From positions 4,804 through 68,803 of the forward strand of contig NZ_JBJXDQ010000003.1 in assembly GCF_046155325.1 (NCBI RefSeq): a stretch of 64,000 nucleotides of DNA, in the 5' to 3' direction. The position numbers and the translations under genes were made by a program. Positions 151-33,601 of this stretch are shown here, piece after piece; the stretch's first letter is position 1, and each line of letters starts with the position of its first letter. Under the pieces are notes generated by a model that did not search any database, was not told the DNA's origin, and was given only the letters and a program-made list of their open reading frames with translations. This DNA comes from Flavobacterium sp. GTDB taxonomy: Bacteria; Bacteroidota; Bacteroidia; Flavobacteriales; Flavobacteriaceae.

Positions 151-717
151 ATGGACATCAACCCAGAAATCCAAAACGCATTTGAAATAATTCAACAAGG
201 CGGCATTATCCTCTACCCGACTGATACCGTTTGGGGAATAGGCTGCGATGCCACAAATCCTGAGGCTGTTGCCAAAATCTATACGCTCAAACAACGAGCC
301 GAAACCCAAAGTATGATAGTTCTGATGAATGGCGAAAAAATGATGTACAACGTTTTCAAAGAAATTCCAGAAGTGGCTTGGCAAATTATCGATTTATCCG
401 AGAAACCAACGACATTAATTCTTGATAAACCCCGAAATGTGGCTGCCAACTTAATTGCTTCCGATAATACTCTAGGAATTAGAATCGTCAAAGAACCCTT
501 TTGCTTTAAATTGATGGAGAAAATGAAAAAACCACTGGTTTCGACTTCTGCAAATATCTCTGGTCAGCCTACTCCTATTGCTTTTAAAGATATTAATCCC
601 GAAATTATAAAAGGTGTGGACTATGTTGTAAATTTGCACCGTGATAAAATTGGAGGAAAACCGTCTACGATTATAAAAATAACGAACGATTCTCAGGTAA
701 AAGTGATTCGGAAGTAA
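151..717 (+). CDS. tsaC: L-threonylcarbamoyladenylate synthase, short YrdC-domain-only form
   Basis: YPTDTVWGIGCDA, KxR and STSANISG motifs of the Sua5/YrdC family; 188 aa, no C-terminal SUA5 domain. Confidence 0.9.
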   Translation: MDINPEIQNAFEIIQQGGIILYPTDTVWGIGCDATNPEAVAKIYTLKQRAETQSMIVLMNGEKMMYNVFKEIPEVAWQIIDLSEKPTTLILDKPRNVAANLIASDNTLGIRIVKEPFCFKLMEKMKKPLVSTSANISGQPTPIAFKDINPEIIKGVDYVVNLHRDKIGGKPSTIIKITNDSQVKVIRK

Positions 718-23342: not shown

Positions 23343-24254
23343 ATGATGTTATCTAAAAAAATTAATTACATTTTAATACTGAATTTAATTCTAATTTCTT
23401 GCTCAACAAATCCGTATAAAAAAAGTGAGAAAGTATATGACGAAAAATTAAGTACAATTAAGGAAACCATATCTGTCAAAGAAGCAACTTCATTACAAAA
23501 AGTAGAAATACCAGAAACAAATCGCGATTCTTTATATTTAAAACAATTATTGATTTATAAAGATTCAATATCAAAAACTGGCGGTATTCCTTTGCAAGAA
23601 GGAATCAGTACGGAATGGATTGGCACTGTAAATTTCAATCTTAGAAAACCCAATTTTATCATCATTCACCACACCGCTCAAGATTCGTTACAACAAACTA
23701 TAAAAACATTTACTAAAAACGAAAGCAAGGTAAGTGCTCATTATGTTATTTCTAAAGATGGTAAAATAGTTCACATGCTAAACGATTATCTCCGTGCTTG
23801 GCATGCAGGAATTTCATCCTGGGGAAAAAACACTGATATCAATTCATGTTCTATTGGGATTGAAATAGATAATAATGGTAATGAAGCCTTTTCAGAATTA
23901 CAAATTAATACTTTATTGGCATTATTAACTAAATTAAAGAAAGACTACAATATTCCGGTAGAAAATATAATAGGACATTCAGATATTGCACCGACACGAA
24001 AACAAGATCCTAGCGCCTTTTTTCCATGGAAAACATTAGCTTCAATGGGATTTGGGATATGGCCAGACGAAGTTTTAGAAAATGCACCTCCAACTTTCAG
24101 TATAGAACAAGGATTGCGTATTATTGGCTATAACACCACAAACCTGACGGCAGCCATTAAAGCTTTTAAATTACACTTTATACAAACTGAAGTTGATGCT
24201 TATTTAGACCCAAAAACTATAAATACGATTTATAACTTGTCTAAAAGACAATAA
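23343..24254 (+). CDS. N-acetylmuramoyl-L-alanine amidase (Amidase_2/AmiD-like lipoprotein)
   Basis: IIIHHTA, SAHYVI, RAWHAG, SIGIEIDN, GHSDIAPTRKQDP; lipobox LISC. Confidence 0.92.
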   Translation: MMLSKKINYILILNLILISCSTNPYKKSEKVYDEKLSTIKETISVKEATSLQKVEIPETNRDSLYLKQLLIYKDSISKTGGIPLQEGISTEWIGTVNFNLRKPNFIIIHHTAQDSLQQTIKTFTKNESKVSAHYVISKDGKIVHMLNDYLRAWHAGISSWGKNTDINSCSIGIEIDNNGNEAFSELQINTLLALLTKLKKDYNIPVENIIGHSDIAPTRKQDPSAFFPWKTLASMGFGIWPDEVLENAPPTFSIEQGLRIIGYNTTNLTAAIKAFKLHFIQTEVDAYLDPKTINTIYNLSKRQ

Positions 24255-24298
24255 TGTATCATTTTAATTTTGAATTTACCGACAACAATAAGTGGCTA

Positions 24299-24375
24299 TT
24301 TGTCATTCTGAGCGCAGTAAGAATCACATAACGATAGCAACAGATGTGATTCTTCACTGCGCTCAGAATGACAAA
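24299..24375. repeat. Long REP-like inverted repeat (TGTCA-type)
   Basis: 31-bp stem (24299-24329 with 24344-24375, one bulged C at 24355), 14-nt loop. Confidence 0.9.
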
Positions 24376-24425
24376 ACAACATAAATTTACTAGATAGAAT
24401 TCTTTTTGTCAGGACAATTAGTTCC

Positions 24426-24457
24426 AAAAAAAAATCCCGCAAATTGCGGGACTTTTT
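24426..24457. terminator. Bidirectional terminator
   Basis: tcccgcaa/ttgcggga stem with A and T flanks. Confidence 0.75.
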
Positions 24458-24478
24458 GTATAAAAGTGTTTTGGATTC

Positions 24479-25477
24479 TTAGAAACCGTAAACTACAGCT
24501 AATGAAATTTGCGAAGCAGATTTTGCCGGAGCTCCGTCTGAATCTTCAAATAATATTTCATCAGAATTATTATCCATTCTAAACTCAGGAATAAAAGTTA
24601 ATCCACCTGATTTTAGGTTAGCTGATAAAGTAAGAGCTGTTACTGAAGTATCAAAAGAATTCTTTTTAGATTTAAATGACTCAGCACGCAAACCTAAACC
24701 AAAATTACTAGATACAGCATAAGATGGATACAAAGCAAAACCAGTATATCCTGTATCTTCACCAACTCCAGCAAAATCAGCAGCATTTAACCCTAATTTG
24801 AATTTTTCTGAAATTTGGTAAGCAGCTGTTAAATCAATAATAGTTCCTTTAGATGAACCATCTAAGTAATTAATATAAGCAGTAAAACCCTCAAACGGAG
24901 TTAATGACAACTGAGCTCCAATGTTATTTAATCCTAAATCAGCATCTGCTTGATAAAGATTCCAGTCATTATTAAACAAACCTACCATCAAACCTACTTT
25001 GCTAGAGATAGCATAATTAGCTTTAATACCAGCATTTTGGAATGGTCCGTTGGTAAATAAATACGAAGTAGAGTAGTGTAAATTCCCTAATGGAGAAATC
25101 ACTTCATATCCTACAAATGTAGCCATATATCCAGCCGTTAAAGTTAACTTGTCAGATGCAGCATAAGCAGCATACAAGTTTTGGATGTGGAAAGATTGAC
25201 CTCCTACTTCTGGAATAGATTGCCCTGCTCCTCTAGGACCAAAAGAAACTTCACCTACAAAAGAGGTTTTACCTGTTTTTTTCTTCAACGCAATATCAAT
25301 CATACCTAAAGAAACGGAGTTTTGATCTGTTGCGAAACTAGTAGGAATTTGAGCCAATTTAGAAAAATCATACTTGTAGTACAAATCAGCAGAACCAGAA
25401 ATTTCTAGTGGTGTGTCTTGTGCAAACGTCACCGTTGTTGTAAGCGCTAAGGCTAAAATAGTAATTACTTTTTTCAT
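24479..25477 (-). CDS. Outer-membrane beta-barrel porin (DUF1597-like)
   Basis: Signal peptide; ISGSADLYY, YLFTNGPFQNAG, PEFRMD; C-terminal Phe. Confidence 0.75.
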   Translation of the reverse strand: MKKVITILALALTTTVTFAQDTPLEISGSADLYYKYDFSKLAQIPTSFATDQNSVSLGMIDIALKKKTGKTSFVGEVSFGPRGAGQSIPEVGGQSFHIQNLYAAYAASDKLTLTAGYMATFVGYEVISPLGNLHYSTSYLFTNGPFQNAGIKANYAISSKVGLMVGLFNNDWNLYQADADLGLNNIGAQLSLTPFEGFTAYINYLDGSSKGTIIDLTAAYQISEKFKLGLNAADFAGVGEDTGYTGFALYPSYAVSSNFGLGLRAESFKSKKNSFDTSVTALTLSANLKSGGLTFIPEFRMDNNSDEILFEDSDGAPAKSASQISLAVVYGF

Positions 25478-25765
25478 GTTTAATTTAATTTAATTATTAA
25501 TTGGGTTATTGATTTCTAAATTATATTACTATTATTTAGAAGTATCGAAATCAAAATTAACTTTTAGTTAGTATGAAATCTTTGTCTTTAATAATAGTTT
25601 TTAACAAATTTATTAACTTTTATTTAACCTAACCAGTTAAGAATTGTATTTTACGATAGAATTATCAATTTTCAAAAAACAGTAATAAAAAAAAATGCAA
25701 TCCGTAATTTTAGATTGAAATATTCTTAAATTGATTTTCAAGAATTCATTAAAATTTCAAAAAAA

Positions 25766-25809
25766 GCAAAAAGGGATTCATTTTAATTTAAAAATGAATC
25801 CCTTTTTGC
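25766..25809 (-). terminator. Strong terminator directly downstream of sbtA
   Basis: 19-bp perfect stem gcaaaaagggattcatttt/aaaatgaatccctttttgc. Confidence 0.8.
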
Positions 25810-25845
25810 TAGAATAAACTAATTTCAATAATTAAAAAACTTAAT

Positions 25846-26802
25846 TTAAGTCATTAAAACCACAGCATAATATAAAGGAAAACCAATGGTGATATTAAAA
25901 GGGAAAGTAACCGCTAGGGCCATTGGTAAATATAATCCCGGATTAGCTTTTGGTACTGCAATTTTCATCGCAGCTGGTACTGCAATATAAGAAGCACTCG
26001 CTGCAAGAATTGCGAAAATAAATCGATCCCCAATCTCCTGAGTAACAAATCCACTTAAGATTGCTACTAAACAACCATTTACTAAGGGAACTGCAATGGC
26101 GAATACTGATGTAAACCATCCGTTTTTTATAAAATCTGATAATTTTTTGCCACTTGTCATACCCATATCAAGTAAGAAAATCACAAGAAAACCTTTAAAC
26201 AAATCAGTTGTAAAAGGTTTAATCCCTTCTGCTTGGCTGTCACTTGCAAGCATACCAATGATTAAACTCCCTATTATAAGCAGAACACTCCCATTTGTAA
26301 AAGAGTGCTTGATGATTTCAGAAATTTTTATATCATTATTCTTTTTGAAAAAAGATATCATAACCACACCAACGATTATCGCTGGAGCTTCCATTAATGC
26401 CATTATTGCAACCATGTGCCCATTAAATTCAACTTTTTGAAGCTCTAAAAAAGAAATAGCTGTAACAAAAGTAACTGCACTAACAGAACCGTAAGCTGCC
26501 GCAATAGCGCCTGCATTATCGATGCCCAGTTTCTTTTTTATTATAAAAAAAGTATAAAAAGGAATAACAATTGCAGTCGCTACCCCAAAAAATACTGACC
26601 AAAAAACCTCCATATTAAAAGAACTGTGCGCTAACTCTTGACCTCCTTTAAATCCAATAGAAAACAAGAGATAAAGGGAGATAAATTTTGAGGAGTTTTC
26701 TGGAATTTTTAAATCACTTTTTACTTTTACAGCTATAATTCCTAAAAGAAAAAACAGTAATGCTGGGCTCGTCAAATTATCCATTAATAATGATGTATTC
26801 AT
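25846..26802 (-). CDS. sbtA: Sodium-dependent bicarbonate transport family permease SbtA
   Basis: KSDLKIP, YLLFSIGFKGG, AAAYGSVSAVTF, SASYIAVPAA, ALAVTFPFNI. Confidence 0.9.
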   Translation of the reverse strand: MNTSLLMDNLTSPALLFFLLGIIAVKVKSDLKIPENSSKFISLYLLFSIGFKGGQELAHSSFNMEVFWSVFFGVATAIVIPFYTFFIIKKKLGIDNAGAIAAAYGSVSAVTFVTAISFLELQKVEFNGHMVAIMALMEAPAIIVGVVMISFFKKNNDIKISEIIKHSFTNGSVLLIIGSLIIGMLASDSQAEGIKPFTTDLFKGFLVIFLLDMGMTSGKKLSDFIKNGWFTSVFAIAVPLVNGCLVAILSGFVTQEIGDRFIFAILAASASYIAVPAAMKIAVPKANPGLYLPMALAVTFPFNITIGFPLYYAVVLMT

Positions 26803-26814
26803 AATTCTTCTTTA

Positions 26815-27795
26815 TTAGTTACTATTAATTTTCTTATATTCAAAATGTTCTTCTTGAGCTCTGTATAATCGATCATTTATGGTTATGCCGAGTTGCTTTT
26901 CGGGAAATTTTTCAGCAAAAATTATATCAAAATGCATAGCATCTAGTTTATGCATAGCTGCATATAAATTTTTTGCGGCTTCTTCTAGATTTTCAACTGC
27001 TGATAATTCAATGTATTTATTAGTAGAAAGATATTCGTCATTATTTTTAAACAAGAGAAATCCAACATTTAAATTAATGTTATCTTTTATAGTATTGGAT
27101 ATATTATTTGAAACTATAAATTTTGTCTTAGGAGAATAATGTTTATTAATCATCCCAGGAGCATCTGGTGAGGCAGATGCAGTGTTTTTAATTTCTAAAT
27201 TTCCAATGCATTTTTCAATTTCCTCTTTAGAAATTGCACCAACTCTATACAAAACCGGTTTGTCATTTACAAAGCCAATAATTGTTGATTCAATTCCTTT
27301 ATCACAAGATCCTCCTTCTAAAATATAAGGAATTTTATCCCCTAGTTGTTTTTTGACATGATCAGAAGTTGTCGGACTGATATACCCAAAAGGATTAGCA
27401 CTAGGAGCCGCAAGAGGAAAATCTAATGATTCTAACAAAGCTAAAGCTATTGGATGCGAAGGAACTCTCACACCAACGGTAGGTTTTCCGCTAGTTACTT
27501 TATCCGAAATATTTGATTTTTTTTCCAAAACCAAAGTTAATGCTCCAGGCCAAAATCGATTGGCTAATTCATAGGCGATTGGTGGAATATTAAACGCAAT
27601 TGTATCTAAATAATCTATCGATTTTATATGCACTATCAGCGGATTAAATAAAGGACGTTGCTTGATTTCAAATACTTGCATAACAGCATTTTCATTAAAT
27701 GCATTGGCAGCCAACCCATATACCGTTTCTGTTGGAATAGCTACTACACTTCCTTTTCTTAGTAAGTCAGCAGCTATATTAATTTCGTTAGTCAT
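26815..27795 (-). CDS. sua5: Second threonylcarbamoyl-AMP synthase, full-length Sua5 type
   Basis: PTETVYGLAA, KQRPLFNPLIVH, FWPGALT, AAPSANPFG, PGMINKHYSP linker, C-terminal SUA5 domain (AINDRL-like TINDRL). Confidence 0.92.
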   Translation of the reverse strand: MTNEINIAADLLRKGSVVAIPTETVYGLAANAFNENAVMQVFEIKQRPLFNPLIVHIKSIDYLDTIAFNIPPIAYELANRFWPGALTLVLEKKSNISDKVTSGKPTVGVRVPSHPIALALLESLDFPLAAPSANPFGYISPTTSDHVKKQLGDKIPYILEGGSCDKGIESTIIGFVNDKPVLYRVGAISKEEIEKCIGNLEIKNTASASPDAPGMINKHYSPKTKFIVSNNISNTIKDNINLNVGFLLFKNNDEYLSTNKYIELSAVENLEEAAKNLYAAMHKLDAMHFDIIFAEKFPEKQLGITINDRLYRAQEEHFEYKKINSN

Positions 27796-27800
27796 AAATT

Positions 27801-28640
27801 TTATGGATTACAATAATCACAATACATTGGATCCTCTGTTTTTTTACCTTTGGGAAACATAATTTCAGAAACATAATCACATTTCATACAAGAATATAGA
27901 TTTGATTTTATCGACTTTGTTTCACTTCCACATAAGCTACAGTTCAAACCTAATACTACTGATGTTGCACTAAATCCTGGTGTAGAACATTTTGGACAAA
28001 GTGAATTGAGTTTATCTAATAATTTAAAAGCTGTATCTTTAATAACTTTCATTCGGGTAGGATTGTACATTGCCCGCATATCTGTTTCAACATAAATTGA
28101 AGTTGCTTTTAAAGTTAATTCAATATAATATTGTTTAAGGGCATCCCAACTCTGAATTCCTTTTCTAATTTCAGAAAAATTATTTTCAGTATCTTTTAAA
28201 ATTAAGGCGTGTGATGGAAAATTAATTTTATTAGCAAAATCTACAAGCTTATCAAAAGTGTAAATTATTGACCCATTAAAATTTGTTTCTAAACTAATCT
28301 CTCTGGCTGTAATCTCTAAATCATTTTTTTTATCAATAAATAGTAAAATCTCTTCATCTGCATTGGCAAAAAAGATACTCGGATGTGATCCGAAAGAACC
28401 TTCGCTAGCAATTCCTATATCACAATTAGTACAATTCATTGCCGTAAGACATTTGGCTCTAACCGTTTCTATTGAAGATGAAGTACGTTCTATTTCACCT
28501 GAAAAAGTCCCAAAATAATCAGTGTCAAAATTTTCTGGAACAAAACAATGAACACCAATACCATCTTGTAAAACTGGTGCTATTACACTTTCTTTTCCAT
28601 GCATAGTAGCAATTACTATTTTTCTACCTTCAAACATCAA
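27801..28640 (-). CDS. DUF6671-like protein with C-terminal Cys-rich zinc-binding region
   Basis: ATMHGKE, DTDYFGTFSGEIER, ASEGSFG; four CxxC pairs (CPKC, CSLC, CMKC, CDYC). Confidence 0.75.
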   Translation of the reverse strand: MMFEGRKIVIATMHGKESVIAPVLQDGIGVHCFVPENFDTDYFGTFSGEIERTSSSIETVRAKCLTAMNCTNCDIGIASEGSFGSHPSIFFANADEEILLFIDKKNDLEITAREISLETNFNGSIIYTFDKLVDFANKINFPSHALILKDTENNFSEIRKGIQSWDALKQYYIELTLKATSIYVETDMRAMYNPTRMKVIKDTAFKLLDKLNSLCPKCSTPGFSATSVVLGLNCSLCGSETKSIKSNLYSCMKCDYVSEIMFPKGKKTEDPMYCDYCNP

Positions 28641-28650
28641 ATTATGATAT

Positions 28651-28932
28651 TTAAACTAAAGTGATTTGGATAATACTATCTATTTTTATTTTCTTGACGT
28701 TTTTATCAGCATCTTTTAAAATCAGTTTAACATCTTCGATAGATTGTTTTAGATAGTCAACTCTTTTTTTTGAATGGGAAAAGTCATTCCCATTTCGAAT
28801 TTGATTACTAAAAGACTCTAATTGATGATAATTTATTTTATTATTCAATAAAGACATCAGTAATTTCAGGGCTTCTTCAGGCAAAAATTCCCCTTCTATT
28901 AATTGAAATTTGTGTTTAGTAGTATCTATCAT
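28651..28932 (-). CDS. Small hypothetical protein, first gene of the sbtA operon
   Basis: 93-aa ORF; LIEGEFLPEEA..KINYH; 10 nt from the next gene. Confidence 0.7.
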   Translation of the reverse strand: MIDTTKHKFQLIEGEFLPEEALKLLMSLLNNKINYHQLESFSNQIRNGNDFSHSKKRVDYLKQSIEDVKLILKDADKNVKKIKIDSIIQITLV

Positions 28933-28952
28933 AGTTTCTAAATTTATTTTTG

Positions 28953-29021
28953 CAAATATAGAATGAGTTATTTATAAATTATTATTTATATTTGTTATAC
29001 TAATCATAAAAAATATTTATG
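28953..29021. promoter_or_regulatory. Divergent promoters with a LysR-type box
   Basis: TATATTTG on the minus strand at 28953-28960 and on the plus strand at 28987-28994; CATAA-N7-TTATG (T-N11-A) at 29005-29021. Confidence 0.6.
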
Positions 29022-29942
29022 AACTATACGTTACATCAATTACAAATATTTTTAAAAGTTGCAGAAGTAAAAAGCATTACAAAAGCATCTGAGGAGCTAA
29101 ATTTAACCCAACCTGCGGTTTCAATTCAAATAAAAAATCTTCAAAATCAATTTGATATACCGCTAACAGAAGTTATAGGAAAACAACTTTATGTCACTGA
29201 TTTTGGCTTGGAAATTGTTGAAATTGCTAAGAATATTCTAAACGAAGTTCAAAAAATCAACTATTTAACAATGTCATTTAAAGGGATTCTATCCGGAAAA
29301 TTAAACCTTTCTGTCGTTTCAACAGGAAAATATGTAATACCCTATTTTTTATCCGACTTTTTGAAAATAAACCCAGGAATAGATTTAAATATGGACGTGA
29401 CCAATAAATTGAAAGTGATTAAAAGTCTAGAAAAGAATGAAGTTGATTTTGCTTTAGTTTCAGTACTACCAAAAAAAATAACGCTGAATTCAGAAATTTT
29501 ATTAGACAACAAATTATATTTAATAGGCAACAAAGAAGTAATTATCCCTAATAAACCTTATGGGAAATCTATCTTTAATACCATCCCTTTAATTTATAGA
29601 GAAGAAGGTTCTGCGACACGATTAATAATGGAGCAATTTTTCGAAAGAAATGAAATTAAAGCACCAATGAAAATGCAACTTACTTCTAATGAAGCAGTAA
29701 AGCAAGCTGTCATAGCAGGTTTGGGATACTCAATCATGCCCTTGATTGGGTCAAATAATGAATTAAAAAACAAGGAACTGCAAATAATTCCAGTTTTTGG
29801 TTTTCCTATTACTTCAGATTGGAGATTAGTATGGCTTAAGAACAAATCCCTAAGTCCCGTTGCGCAAGCTTATTTAGATTACATAAAAAAAGAAAAAGAA
29901 GTAATTGTCCAAAACCATTTTTCGTGGATTTACACTTTATAA
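29019..29942 (+). CDS. LysR family regulator, CbbR/CmpR-like
   Basis: YTLHQLQIF..LTQPAVSIQ HTH; REEGSATR and SNEAVKQAVIAGLG in the effector domain. Confidence 0.9.
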   Translation: MNYTLHQLQIFLKVAEVKSITKASEELNLTQPAVSIQIKNLQNQFDIPLTEVIGKQLYVTDFGLEIVEIAKNILNEVQKINYLTMSFKGILSGKLNLSVVSTGKYVIPYFLSDFLKINPGIDLNMDVTNKLKVIKSLEKNEVDFALVSVLPKKITLNSEILLDNKLYLIGNKEVIIPNKPYGKSIFNTIPLIYREEGSATRLIMEQFFERNEIKAPMKMQLTSNEAVKQAVIAGLGYSIMPLIGSNNELKNKELQIIPVFGFPITSDWRLVWLKNKSLSPVAQAYLDYIKKEKEVIVQNHFSWIYTL

Positions 29943-30265
29943 TATTCTAAAAAACAATAAATAATCAATAAAAATGCATGCCTTAAATTTCATAATAAAA
30001 CTGAAATAAATATTAAGTAGCTCATGAATCATTAAAATAATTTGTGATAATACAAAAAATAAAATTATCAATGCAAAGAAACAAGTTTCACGCTCAATCG
30101 ATAGCTATAATTATACGATAAAATCAGAATCTTCTTTTTTTACGATTCTTACGATTTAACAAATGTCGTTTTTCTAACTATTTTCCTAAAAAAGTAGATG
30201 TTAATATTATTTTAAATTTAATCCAATCGCTTTGATTTCATTTCATAAATCCTAATTTTGTTTTA

Positions 30266-30547
30266 ATGAAATTAACTGCTCAATTAGTATTATTATTTTT
30301 TATAGCCTTTCTTGTTACTCCAACTATTGTTAGTGTAATTGAGAAAAATGCAGATCTGTCATTATTTTATAGTTTTTCAGAAGAAGAAAAAACAAATAAA
30401 GATATTAAAGCCATATTTAATATTGAAGTAGCCACTACTCCAGACAATATATATCCATTGAATCATAGTTTAATACTCTCCGAGAATTTATCCAAACACG
30501 ATATAATTTCCTCCAAAATATTTATTCCCCCACCCGAACAAGTTTAA
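30266..30547 (+). CDS. Small hypothetical protein with N-terminal hydrophobic helix, upstream of SulP
   Basis: 93-aa ORF; hydrophobic N-terminus; ends IFIPPPE. Confidence 0.65.
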   Translation: MKLTAQLVLLFFIAFLVTPTIVSVIEKNADLSLFYSFSEEEKTNKDIKAIFNIEVATTPDNIYPLNHSLILSENLSKHDIISSKIFIPPPEQV

Positions 30548-30639
30548 TACATCGTCGATTTTAATTTTTAAAAATCAAATTTTTACGTTTTTTCAAAATG
30601 TGACAAAAAATCTTTGTATTCAATTTTTAGTACGGTATT

Positions 30640-32295
30640 ATGACAAAAAAACTCAATATTTTCGCCAGCCTTAAATCTGATTTTGCGTCAGGTTTAGTGG
30701 TTTTTTTGGTAGCTTTGCCACTCTGTTTAGGCATTGCAATGGCCTCAGGAGCCCCTTTATTTTCAGGTATTATTTCCGGCGTTATTGGCGGAATAGTGGT
30801 GGGTTATTTAAGTAAATCACACCTAAGTGTCTCAGGCCCGGCGGCAGGTTTGACAGCGATTGTATTAACTGCCATTACCGATTTGGGAGCTTTTGACCTC
30901 TTTTTGACAGCGGTATTTATTGCCGGACTAATTCAGTTGGCTTTGGGATTTATTAAAGCCGGAAGTATTTCGAACTATTTCCCAACCAATGTAATTGAGG
31001 GAATGTTGGCCGGTATTGGAATCATTATTATTCTAAAACAGATGCCACACGCTTTTGGTTACGACAGCGATTTTGAAGGAGATCAAGCCTTTTTCCAACC
31101 TGACGGGGGAAACACAATAACTTCTTTATTAGGCATTGTTAATTATGTTCAATTGGGAGCAATAATTATTACCGCATTATCCTTGATTATTTTAATTGCT
31201 TGGGACAGGGTTCCTTTTCTAAAGAAATTGAAACTGATTCCAGGAGCGCTTATAGTGGTGATTTTGGGAGTACTCTTGAACGAAATCTTCACCACAGCAG
31301 AAAGTTCTTTAGCCATTTCAAAAGAGCATTTGGTTTCTTTACCAATTCCATCCACTCTAGAAGAGTTCAAACAAATCATTGTAACGCCCAAATTTTCGGG
31401 TATTATGAATCCACAGGTTTGGGTTATAGGGCTGACCATTGCCATAGTAGCCTCAATTGAAACGTTGTTGTGCATTGAAGCGGCAGACAGAATGGATATA
31501 CACAAACGCTACACAGACACCAATGTAGAATTGAAAGCGCAAGGAATAGGAAACATTATCAGTTCTCTTTTTGGCGGTTTGCCAATGACGTCGGTGGTGG
31601 TTCGTACTTCGGCAAATAATAACGCAGGGGCAAAATCTAAAATGTCTGCTATAATCCATGGAATATTATTGTTGTTAAGCGTATTGATTATTCCTGCAAT
31701 ATTAAATAAAATCCCCTTGGCAACATTGGCAGCAATCTTGTTATTAGTGGGGTACAAATTAGCCAAACCCGCAACACTAAAACACTTTTGGGAAAAAGGC
31801 AAATACCAATTTATTCCGTTTATTGCCACACTATCTGCCGTTGTTTTCTCAGATTTGCTAAAAGGGGTTGCATTAGGAATGATTATTAGCGTTATTTTTG
31901 TCTTAAAAGGAAACATGCAAAGAGCCTATAAATTTAGAAAAGAAGAGTATCATGATGGAGATGTCATACACATAGATTTAGCTCAAGAAGTATCTTTTTT
32001 AAATAAAGCGGCAATTAAATCAACACTAAACGATATTCCGGAAAACTCAAAAGTAATTATAGATGCAAAAGACACTGTCTATATAGCCCATGATATTTTG
32101 GATTTAATTCATGAATTTAAAACTACCCGAGCCAAAGATGATAATATAAAAGTGAAGCTTAGAGGATTTAAAGAAGCCTATCAATTAGAAAATAGTAAGG
32201 AAACCCCAAACAAAGTTACTTTTGAACATTATTATGATGTTGCAAAAAGAAAAACCATACAAAGAGAAACCCTTTCTGAGGATTTTCTAAAATGA
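30640..32295 (+). CDS. SulP family inorganic anion (bicarbonate) transporter
   Basis: SGLVVFLVALPLCLGIAMASG, SVSGPAAG, GGLPMTSVVVRT; STAS-like C-terminus. Confidence 0.92.
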   Translation: MTKKLNIFASLKSDFASGLVVFLVALPLCLGIAMASGAPLFSGIISGVIGGIVVGYLSKSHLSVSGPAAGLTAIVLTAITDLGAFDLFLTAVFIAGLIQLALGFIKAGSISNYFPTNVIEGMLAGIGIIIILKQMPHAFGYDSDFEGDQAFFQPDGGNTITSLLGIVNYVQLGAIIITALSLIILIAWDRVPFLKKLKLIPGALIVVILGVLLNEIFTTAESSLAISKEHLVSLPIPSTLEEFKQIIVTPKFSGIMNPQVWVIGLTIAIVASIETLLCIEAADRMDIHKRYTDTNVELKAQGIGNIISSLFGGLPMTSVVVRTSANNNAGAKSKMSAIIHGILLLLSVLIIPAILNKIPLATLAAILLLVGYKLAKPATLKHFWEKGKYQFIPFIATLSAVVFSDLLKGVALGMIISVIFVLKGNMQRAYKFRKEEYHDGDVIHIDLAQEVSFLNKAAIKSTLNDIPENSKVIIDAKDTVYIAHDILDLIHEFKTTRAKDDNIKVKLRGFKEAYQLENSKETPNKVTFEHYYDVAKRKTIQRETLSEDFLK

Positions 32296-32349
32296 TTAAA
32301 TATTGAAGAAATTAGTTTAACAAATTCTTAAAATTTAACAAAACAAAAA

Positions 32350-32985
32350 ATGAGCGATTTTTATAAAAAAATATTAGATAATAACAAAAAATGGGTAGAA
32401 GCCTCTTTGGCTAATGATCCAAATTATTTTGCAGATTTAGCTAAAGGACAAACACCCCCATTATTATGGATTGGATGTTCAGACAGTAGAGTTCCAGCTA
32501 ATGAAATTATTGGAGCCAAGCCAGGTGAAGTTTTCGTTCATAGAAATATTGCCAACATGGTAGTCCATACCGATATGAATATGTTGAGCGTATTAGACTA
32601 TGCTGTAAATGTTTTGAAAGTAAAACATGTGCTTGTTTGTGGTCATTATGGCTGTGGCGGAATAAAGGCTGCAATGGGAAACGATTCCGTTGGTATCATT
32701 GACAACTGGATTAGACACATAAAAAATGTTTATCGATTACACGATGAGTACTTAAATTCAATTACTGATGAGACACAACGCTTCAATGCTTTTGTTGAAA
32801 TTAACGTCAAAGAACAAGTTTTTGATTTAGCTAAAACATCCATTGTTCAAGCTGCTTGGAAAAGAGGACAAGATTTAACACTACATGGCTGGGTTTATGG
32901 CTTAAATTCAGGTTTTGTGACCGATTTAAATGTGAATATAAGTTCAGAAAAGGATTTAGACGAAGTTTATCGATTGAGATTCTAA
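32350..32985 (+). CDS. can: Beta-class carbonic anhydrase
   Basis: GCSDSRV, HRNIAN, CGHYGCGG zinc ligands. Confidence 0.95.
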   Translation: MSDFYKKILDNNKKWVEASLANDPNYFADLAKGQTPPLLWIGCSDSRVPANEIIGAKPGEVFVHRNIANMVVHTDMNMLSVLDYAVNVLKVKHVLVCGHYGCGGIKAAMGNDSVGIIDNWIRHIKNVYRLHDEYLNSITDETQRFNAFVEINVKEQVFDLAKTSIVQAAWKRGQDLTLHGWVYGLNSGFVTDLNVNISSEKDLDEVYRLRF

Positions 32986-32988
32986 AAT

Positions 32989-33016
32989 AAAAATCGCCGT
33001 AAGGCGATTTTTTTAT
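32989..33016 (+). terminator. Intrinsic terminator
   Basis: aaaaatcgcc/ggcgattttt stem plus T run. Confidence 0.8.
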
Positions 33017-33251
33017 TTTTAAAATAATTCAAACAGAAAGTCGCCAAAAGTTAAAGAATCATTTTTACAGCAATAGATAATTATTTACTTAAAGAAAATG
33101 TAACCCCTACTACAAGAAATTGATGCCCTAGTAGTGAAATAAATTAATATAATTTTATAATGTTAAATGAAGTGTTAAAAATTTCTGAAAAATTTTAAAT
33201 TCCTAATTAATCAAAATAAGGTAGCTGAAATTTTATTAACGTATTTTAATC

Positions 33252-33290
33252 AAAAAGTCCCAATTCTTAAATTTTGAATTGGGACTTTTT
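33252..33290 (-). terminator. Terminator after yajC
   Basis: 15-bp stem aaaaagtcccaattc/gaattgggacttttt. Confidence 0.8.
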
Positions 33291-33319
33291 AACTAATAAA
33301 TACTTCTGAATAATAATAT

Positions 33320-33601
33320 TTATACTTGTTCTTTTTTATTTAGAACTGCACTCATTTCCATAGAAATTGCTGAACGTTCCATTTTTAACTTACCTGCCAT
33401 AGTTTCAACAACAACAGTAGTTTCGGCAAGCTCGGCAACTTTTCCGTGAAGCCCACTTTTTGTGATGATTTTGTCACCTACTTTCAGGGTGCTTTCAAAT
33501 TCTTTTTCTTGTTTAGCTTTCTTTTGTTGCGGTCTGATCATAAAGAAATAGATTACCACAAACATTAATAAAAAAGGTGCAAATTGATTTAATTGTTCCA
33601 T
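33320..33601 (-). CDS. yajC: Preprotein translocase subunit YajC
   Basis: YFFMIRPQQKK, LKVGDKIITKSGLHGKV. Confidence 0.95.
   Translation of the reverse strand: MEQLNQFAPFLLMFVVIYFFMIRPQQKKAKQEKEFESTLKVGDKIITKSGLHGKVAELAETTVVVETMAGKLKMERSAISMEMSAVLNKKEQV

Follow-up and report, generated by a model that had tools for sequence, protein, structure and literature searches.

In Flavobacterium, the two-domain enzyme Sua5 is a true accessory copy which is gained and lost together with a permease of the Sbt_1 family. The copy studied here is encoded on the minus strand (26815–27795) of a 64,000-nucleotide stretch of a Flavobacterium sp. genome (contig NZ_JBJXDQ010000003.1, positions 4,804 to 68,803), which is referred to as the window. 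Sua5, also named TsaC2, is the type-2 form of L-threonylcarbamoyladenylate (TC-AMP) synthase and acts in the synthesis of the tRNA modification N6-threonylcarbamoyladenosine (t6A); the housekeeping copy of the genus is the type-1 form, TsaC. The enzyme itself is known; what is new is its conserved setting, both regulatory and genomic. The explanation that we favour, and to which we give about an even chance, is that this Sua5 is a TC-AMP synthase isozyme for low inorganic carbon, coregulated with the Sbt_1 permease and kept beside the housekeeping TsaC.

Judged by its sequence, the 326-residue product of this open reading frame (ORF) is a canonical two-domain Sua5 with its catalytic, threonine-binding and linker residues all intact. 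Pfam searches place PF01300 (Sua5_yciO_yrdC, 200 bits, E 2.8e-59) on residues 11–186 and PF03481 (Sua5_C, 96 bits, E 2.9e-27) on residues 188–313. The equivalog model for TC-AMP synthases, TIGR00057, scores 199.5 bits at a cut-off of 123.2. The best solved relatives, Sua5 of Pyrococcus abyssi (PDB 6f87, E 2e-67) and of Sulfolobus tokodaii (E 4e-65), match over the full length. The paper on the P. abyssi structure defines a catalytic tetrad (K56xR58/S143xN145), the threonine ligands and a linker with P228-G229-M230 and H234-Y235; it also establishes that the enzyme uses HCO3-/CO2 and that the linker closes the active site (PMC6004061). These key residues were mapped onto the window protein through an alignment to the structure's sequence. 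The tetrad corresponds to K45, R47, S132 and N134, the L-threonine ligands T35, H67, R121, S181 and R195 become T24, H56, R110, S170 and R184, and the linker reads APGMINKHY (P213-G214-M215 and H219-Y220). All of these positions are invariant in 54 flavobacterial Sua5 proteins. Furthermore, the ratio of nonsynonymous to synonymous substitution rates (dN/dS, 0.09–0.20) indicates purifying selection on Sua5. A carbamoyltransferase of the HypF/TobZ kind was considered and rejected, as the HypF model reaches 36.8 bits against a cut-off of 466 and the cluster lacks a Kae1-like domain. YciO identity was ruled out for this protein and for the 188-residue TsaC, since the KRSN tetrad is present in both.

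The housekeeping TsaC lies in the same window (151–717, plus strand). It has 188 amino acids, matches PF01300 only, scores 148 bits with TIGR00057 and keeps the KQR and SAN motifs. The initial annotation had read from this window both a YrdC-only enzyme and a two-domain Sua5 with the PGM..HY linker, and domains, TIGR00057 and motifs confirm it. Its description of Sua5 as the second paralog needs one correction: Sua5 is indeed an extra enzyme beside TsaC, but the genome holds three members of the family. Scanned with PF01300, the whole assembly gave five matches. The third family member is a YciO-like gene which is split at two contig ends (C160:2-280(-) and C76:1-468(+)); these ends overlap by 127 identical bases and, when joined, encode an intact protein of 206 amino acids. 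In this protein K-G-V replaces KxR and the arginine is gone. Loss of KxR is the signature of YciO (PMC4615747). A single TsaD is encoded in the genome. Finally, a truncated duplicate of the 5′ end of tsaC (52 amino acids, contig C3:4193-4351) is located ~600 bp upstream of the window start. It is ~90% identical to tsaC over 49 residues and a small inserted ORF separates it from the intact gene, so that the tsaC locus has been rearranged.

Sua5 appears from the gene layout to be the third gene of a four-gene operon. All four genes are on the minus strand: a small protein of 93 amino acids (28651–28932; no Pfam or NCBIfam match), a DUF6671 protein (27801–28640, 279 amino acids, PF20376 E 4e-98), Sua5 and the SbtA-like Sbt_1 permease (25846–26802, 318 amino acids, PF05982 E 1.7e-115). 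The gaps between them measure 10, 5 and 12 bp in that order, the DUF6671 gene ending 5 bp upstream of Sua5. An intrinsic terminator on the same strand (25765–25810; 20-bp stem, 6-nt loop and T run) follows 36 bp past the stop codon of the permease, and the next gene, 368 bp further on, encodes a porin.

At its head, the operon is separated from a divergent gene for a LysR-family regulator (29019–29942, plus strand; HTH_1 and LysR_substrate domains) by an AT-rich control region of 86 bp (28933–29018). The -7 consensus of Bacteroidota promoters is TAnnTTTG. This spacer contains one candidate box of that type in each direction, at 28960–28953 (minus) and 28987–28994 (plus), together with a candidate inverted repeat, ATAAAT-N4-ATTTAT, at 28974–28989. 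An Rfam search over 24000–33500 revealed no riboswitch or leader, the terminator hairpin and chance matches being all that it returned. The regulator is not a CbbR equivalog: it scores far under the cut-off of that model, though the generic LysR domains are present. Downstream of it on the plus strand are a SulP-family anion transporter (30640–32295; PF00916 E 6e-64; BicA model 136.9 bits at a cut-off of 880) and a beta-class carbonic anhydrase (32350–32985; PF00484 E 2.6e-54; NF007756 265.6 bits at a cut-off of 251). In relatives, too, a LysR ortholog (52–89% identity) diverges from the module, and the beta-carbonic anhydrase and SulP genes adjoin the LysR gene. Another contig (C131:29566-30198) encodes a further beta-carbonic anhydrase, which has 85% identity to that of the window (32350–32985).

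The permease belongs to the SbtA family. The match to PF05982 runs over positions 1–307 of 308, and Synechocystis SbtA (7cye) aligns with it over both inverted repeats (E 1.8e-27), a cytoplasmic loop of ~45 residues between the SbtA repeats being missing from Sbt_1. Because it belongs to this family and has carbonic anhydrase and SulP genes close by, we infer that Sbt_1 carries bicarbonate. The 'bicarbonate operon' of the initial annotation is upheld as an arrangement of four genes with Sbt_1, a terminator and a divergent LysR gene, while its name depends on this putative substrate.

The accessory nature of Sua5 is best seen in a sample of 151 Flavobacterium species. Sua5_C occurs in 48 and Sbt_1 in 51 of these species; 45 have both, three have Sua5 only, six have Sbt_1 only and 97 have neither. 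In 34 of the 45 genomes with both, Sua5 immediately precedes Sbt_1 on the same strand. Eight further genomes place it 1.3–3 kb upstream, which brings the count with this order and strand to 42 of 45; at six examined loci among these eight, pyrC intervenes in three. The two genes are unlinked in two genomes and a contig end cuts the remaining one. TsaC, at 58–90% identity, accompanies Sua5 in 50 of 51 Sua5-bearing congeners, the remaining genome being only 51% complete, which bears out the earlier description of Sua5 as a second paralog beside the housekeeping copy. Since Sua5 is missing from 103 of the 151 congeners, TsaC must suffice in the genus. One likely frameshifted Sua5 copy was seen (G658). 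In three congeners (G565, G593 and G641) the Sua5-Sbt_1 pair is present twice. The two Sua5 copies of G565 (L063 and L064) belong to different groups of the Sua5 tree, and L063 has a duplicated small93 gene and a DUF6671 fragment.

Other genera show what Sua5 can do in the place of TsaC. The family sample comprised one genome per genus for 151 genera. PF01300 is found in 150 of them, usually in two copies of ~210 amino acids (YciO-like) and ~188 amino acids (TsaC), and Sua5_C in 21 only. Among these 21 genera, the TsaC ortholog is intact in seven (at least 46% identity), a pseudogene in one and absent from 13. Sua5 and TsaC therefore alternate, and Sua5 alone can serve t6A synthesis. The interchangeability of TsaC and Sua5 has been published (PMC10321239) and agrees with this family pattern. 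The pseudogene (G008:C35:156874-157424(-)) contains several stop codons and the Sua5 gene of the same genome lies beside ribosomal-protein genes; it looks like a snapshot of the displacement of TsaC by Sua5. Such displacement argues that Sua5 is a genuine t6A enzyme, functionally equivalent to TsaC. Of the 19 Sua5-bearing genera that lack the operon arrangement, 12 have Sua5 near polA, a gene of the YgiQ-type radical S-adenosylmethionine family or rplM-rpsI-rpsB-tsf-pyrH.

Across genera, Sbt_1 is present in 14 of the 21 Sua5-bearing representatives versus 11 of the 130 others. Functional ties need not explain this tendency to share genomes, seen even without linkage; one marine clade may be behind it. 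A family-wide linkage of the two genes was rejected, as they are neighbours in just two of the 21 genus representatives (the window genome and G053). The initial annotation had named rare linkage to sbtA, together with kinetics equal to those of the housekeeping copy, as an argument against its idea. Linkage is rare at this scale, whereas within Flavobacterium it is the prevailing arrangement.

In a tree of the 54 flavobacterial Sua5 proteins, the copies in a housekeeping context form one clade (Shimodaira–Hasegawa-like approximate likelihood ratio test, SH-aLRT, 97) which is nested in a grade of operon-type copies. The window Sua5 belongs to a group of eight with good support, each of them of operon type. 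Operon-type copies have longer branches, yet they are constrained, and 63 positions are invariant across both types. Two ancient lineages, one for each context, were considered and are not seen, given this nesting. The monophyly of operon-type copies is marginally rejected (approximately unbiased test, p 0.035), for a grouping that was chosen after the tree was inspected. Compared with the window copies, the TsaC proteins of 29 genomes are on average 80% identical and the Sua5 proteins 54%, with no correlation between these identities (rho 0.13). Species with 90% identical TsaC have modules that are ~50% identical, sometimes at the same chromosomal site. These observations point to a module history, by exchange or as old allelic lineages, which is separate from that of the core genome. 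The module occupies a few recurring chromosomal sites. No mobility gene that would point to a mobile element was seen, none of the gene clusters that recur at its flanks having been annotated.

A consensus of the module was drawn from 31 loci. It consists of LysR and, divergent from it, an optional icd, small93, DUF6671, Sua5, an optional pyrC and Sbt_1, often with beta-carbonic anhydrase and SulP genes adjacent. The optional genes encode a true NADP-isocitrate dehydrogenase (icd; NF006673, 791 bits) and a true dihydroorotase (pyrC; NF006688, 628 bits). Three Sua5 modules are without DUF6671 (L006, L061 and L069). Beyond the family, LysR-icd-DUF6671 clusters, with or without Sbt_1, occur without Sua5, and pyrC-DUF6671 pairs are common. 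It thus seems that a LysR/DUF6671 cluster existed earlier and that Sua5 joined it later, for the most part in Flavobacterium. In a metagenome-assembled genome of Psychroflexus maritimus (L037, 698-6849), pyrC, Sua5 and DUF6671 stand in a row, 2 kb from tsaD and with no Sbt_1 nearby.

DUF6671, the tightest partner of Sua5, was overlooked in the initial annotation. Its AlphaFold model (predicted local distance difference test score, pLDDT, 87; predicted template modelling score, pTM, 0.80) finds its closest PDB folds in YjjX, CinA-C/PncC, ITPase/Ham1 and Maf. These matches are modest, with template modelling scores (TM-scores) of up to ~0.55 normalised to the target and 0.35 to the query. Four CxxC pairs mark the C-terminal tail and ~90 residues are invariant. 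From the modelled fold, DUF6671 is probably a nucleotide-directed hydrolase. Approximately 5,900 homologs were found, which in other Bacteroidota are beside pyrC or icd, and no publication that we found mentions 'DUF6671'. The 93-residue protein is conserved at the module head in relatives (31–57% identity). It is modelled as a strand, a long helical hairpin and a strand, one of five models being confident; a PDB fold search with it gave nothing significant, the best matches being the coiled-coil arms of FemX and SerRS (E at least 0.26).

How could these parts work together? In the explanation that we favour, the operon would be transcribed from the promoter divergent to the LysR regulator, whose gene also adjoins those for SulP and the beta-carbonic anhydrase. 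When the regulator switches on the import of inorganic carbon, the cell would make an additional TC-AMP synthase too, one whose active site is closed. Sua5 would condense L-threonine, HCO3-/CO2 and ATP to TC-AMP, for transfer by the single TsaD to A37 of tRNA. The first step of t6A synthesis, which is essential and consumes bicarbonate, would thereby be kept running when inorganic carbon is scarce. A t6A backup for low carbon is the most economical reading because HCO3-/CO2 is a substrate of the enzyme, an SbtA-like permease is predicted to be co-transcribed with it, and carbonic anhydrase and SulP genes are at the LysR locus. Low inorganic carbon would be the inducing signal, and Sua5 would be expected to outperform TsaC under this condition. 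More tentatively, and with clearly less than an even chance, t6A synthesis may be limited by inorganic carbon in planktonic heterotrophs, to which Flavobacterium would respond with a carbon-coregulated Sua5, possibly assisted by DUF6671.

Several observations weigh against the low-carbon isozyme. No residue separates operon-type from housekeeping-type Sua5 at 85%/90% conservation or better, so the sequences give no sign of altered kinetics. The odds ratio for the co-occurrence of Sua5 and Sbt_1 in the genus, 242, comes from a statistic that ignores kinship. Nearly all carriers have DUF6671 next to Sua5, and no other neighbour of Sua5, Sbt_1 included, is as constant, which leaves room for a joint function; three genomes with Sua5 and without Sbt_1 keep LysR-icd-(small93)-DUF6671-Sua5. 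In addition, the module also recruits icd and pyrC, possibly mere housekeeping genes. For the permease, the bicarbonate ligands of SbtA proposed from docking and mutagenesis are S114, Y140, S324 and S327. The serines at 114 and 324 are kept (S108 and S271 in Sbt_1), but Y140 is replaced by M134 and S327 by A274. No PII-type domain, as in the SbtB partner of SbtA, was present in any scanned gene of the cluster. Lastly, CbbR (NF045990) is the nearest NCBIfam model for the regulator, with 173.7 bits at a cut-off of 450.

Some of these points would fit a redundant passenger, that is, a functional Sua5 which was captured into a variable LysR-controlled cluster and whose position beside the permease has no inorganic-carbon meaning. 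The two forms, TsaC and Sua5, can replace each other in all domains of life, and their co-occurrence is usually ascribed to transfer (PMC10321239). The module varies in content, with icd, pyrC and DUF6671 each present or absent, and has its own history, as the uncorrelated identities indicate; operon-type copies have no diagnostic residues. However, a passenger should decay or scatter. Instead, Sua5 is under purifying selection in about a third of the species, a single copy is likely frameshifted, and order and strand relative to Sbt_1 are constant in nearly all genomes with both genes, across variants that are ~50% identical. We therefore consider a passenger unlikely. The constancy of DUF6671 invites another thought: Sua5, DUF6671 as an ITPase/YjjX-like hydrolase with a zinc-ribbon tail, and the 93-residue protein could make, proofread or degrade TC-AMP or a related acyl-adenylate outside bulk t6A synthesis, for example as a nucleotide-like metabolite or signal, or by clearing unstable TC-AMP. 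The gene order would suit such a pathway, DUF6671 preceding Sua5 by a few base pairs and staying with it in the three genomes that lack Sbt_1 and in the pyrC-Sua5-DUF6671 row of Psychroflexus. So would a fold like that of nucleotide pyrophosphatases and deamidases, the many invariant residues and the absence of the family from the publications found. Yet DUF6671 is widespread without Sua5, beside pyrC or icd, and Sua5 is found without it in three modules. Sua5 retains its usual substrate pocket, a single TsaD is encoded in the genome with no second transferase in the cluster, and the structural matches are modest, all of which makes this pathway improbable in our view.

The unchanged pocket also bears on two further ideas. 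A sensor making a carboxy-adenylate signal, as suggested in the initial annotation, is disfavoured by the invariance of the tetrad and threonine ligands in the 54 proteins, and by sister copies that are the sole TsaC/Sua5 enzyme in 13 genera. A changed amino-acid specificity is not borne out either, as the five threonine ligands are the same and no residue distinguishes the operon-type from the housekeeping-type copies. The role of sole enzyme in 13 of the 21 Sua5-bearing genera, the TsaC pseudogene in one more and the rearranged tsaC locus upstream of the window could be taken to mean that this organism makes t6A mainly with Sua5 and that the 188-residue TsaC is dispensable. We regard this as very improbable: two thirds of the congeners manage with TsaC and no Sua5, TsaC is intact in 50 of the 51 carriers, and the Sua5 gene of the window belongs to a regulated accessory operon and has no translation genes beside it.

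The reason for two forms of TC-AMP synthase is an open question, for which Flavobacterium offers a genetically tractable natural system to compare carbon use by Sua5 and TsaC. With this system one can ask whether tRNA modification limits heterotrophs at low CO2. If t6A synthesis is carbon-limited and a dedicated Sua5 isozyme meets this limit, TsaC and Sua5, two forms of a universal enzyme, would for the first time be seen to differ in physiology. Furthermore, the DUF6671 family gains a concrete functional neighbourhood.

Related systems resemble this operon in part. No literature report that links Sua5 to an SbtA-family gene was found, a cyanobacterial Rbp3 paper matching both terms aside. The YrdC-like domains of HypF and TobZ have the same fold and form an acyl-adenylate from a one-carbon unit, and the zinc fingers of HypF recall DUF6671, by analogy only; unlike these proteins, the window cluster is without a Kae1-like domain or an acylphosphatase. 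Cyanobacterial sbtA-sbtB under the LysR-type regulators CcmR/CmpR likewise has an SbtA-family permease controlled from a LysR-type gene next to it, and genes for carbonic anhydrase and a BicA-like SulP protein in the vicinity. In contrast to that system, the window operon is without SbtB and its permease without the long inter-repeat loop, half of the four proposed ligands are changed and the host is a heterotroph. Instead of SbtB, the window operon carries Sua5, DUF6671 and the small protein. In marine flavobacteria such as Nonlabens dokdonensis, SbtA, SulP and carbonic anhydrase have been annotated for anaplerotic CO2 fixation (PMC3595038). These sets share the permease family and the inferred import of bicarbonate for a heterotroph. 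However, no connection between the transporter and a t6A enzyme is made in those annotations, and the marine genera of our sample have Sua5 and Sbt_1 at separate loci.

On the enzyme side, Sua5/TsaC2 of P. abyssi (6F87), S. tokodaii (2EQA/3AJE/4E1B) and B. subtilis (YwlC) have the same two domains, tetrad, threonine ligands and PGM/HY linker. These are sole housekeeping enzymes, whereas the window Sua5 is an accessory in a regulated operon with a permease. A closer parallel is Vibrio cholerae, in which TsaC and TsaC2 coexist as they do here (VC0054 and VC1079; Thiaville 2014, PMC4615747; Pichard-Kostuch 2023, PMC10321239). Both forms co-occur in 9% of 9,176 bacterial genomes, V. cholerae being an example, and their functional difference was called 'not understood' (PMC4615747). 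Co-occurrence has also been described as 'rare and unstable', with a second copy that is always exogenous in origin (PMC10321239). In Flavobacterium, by contrast, about a third of the species retain both forms stably, and this co-occurrence is bound to a single conserved operon.

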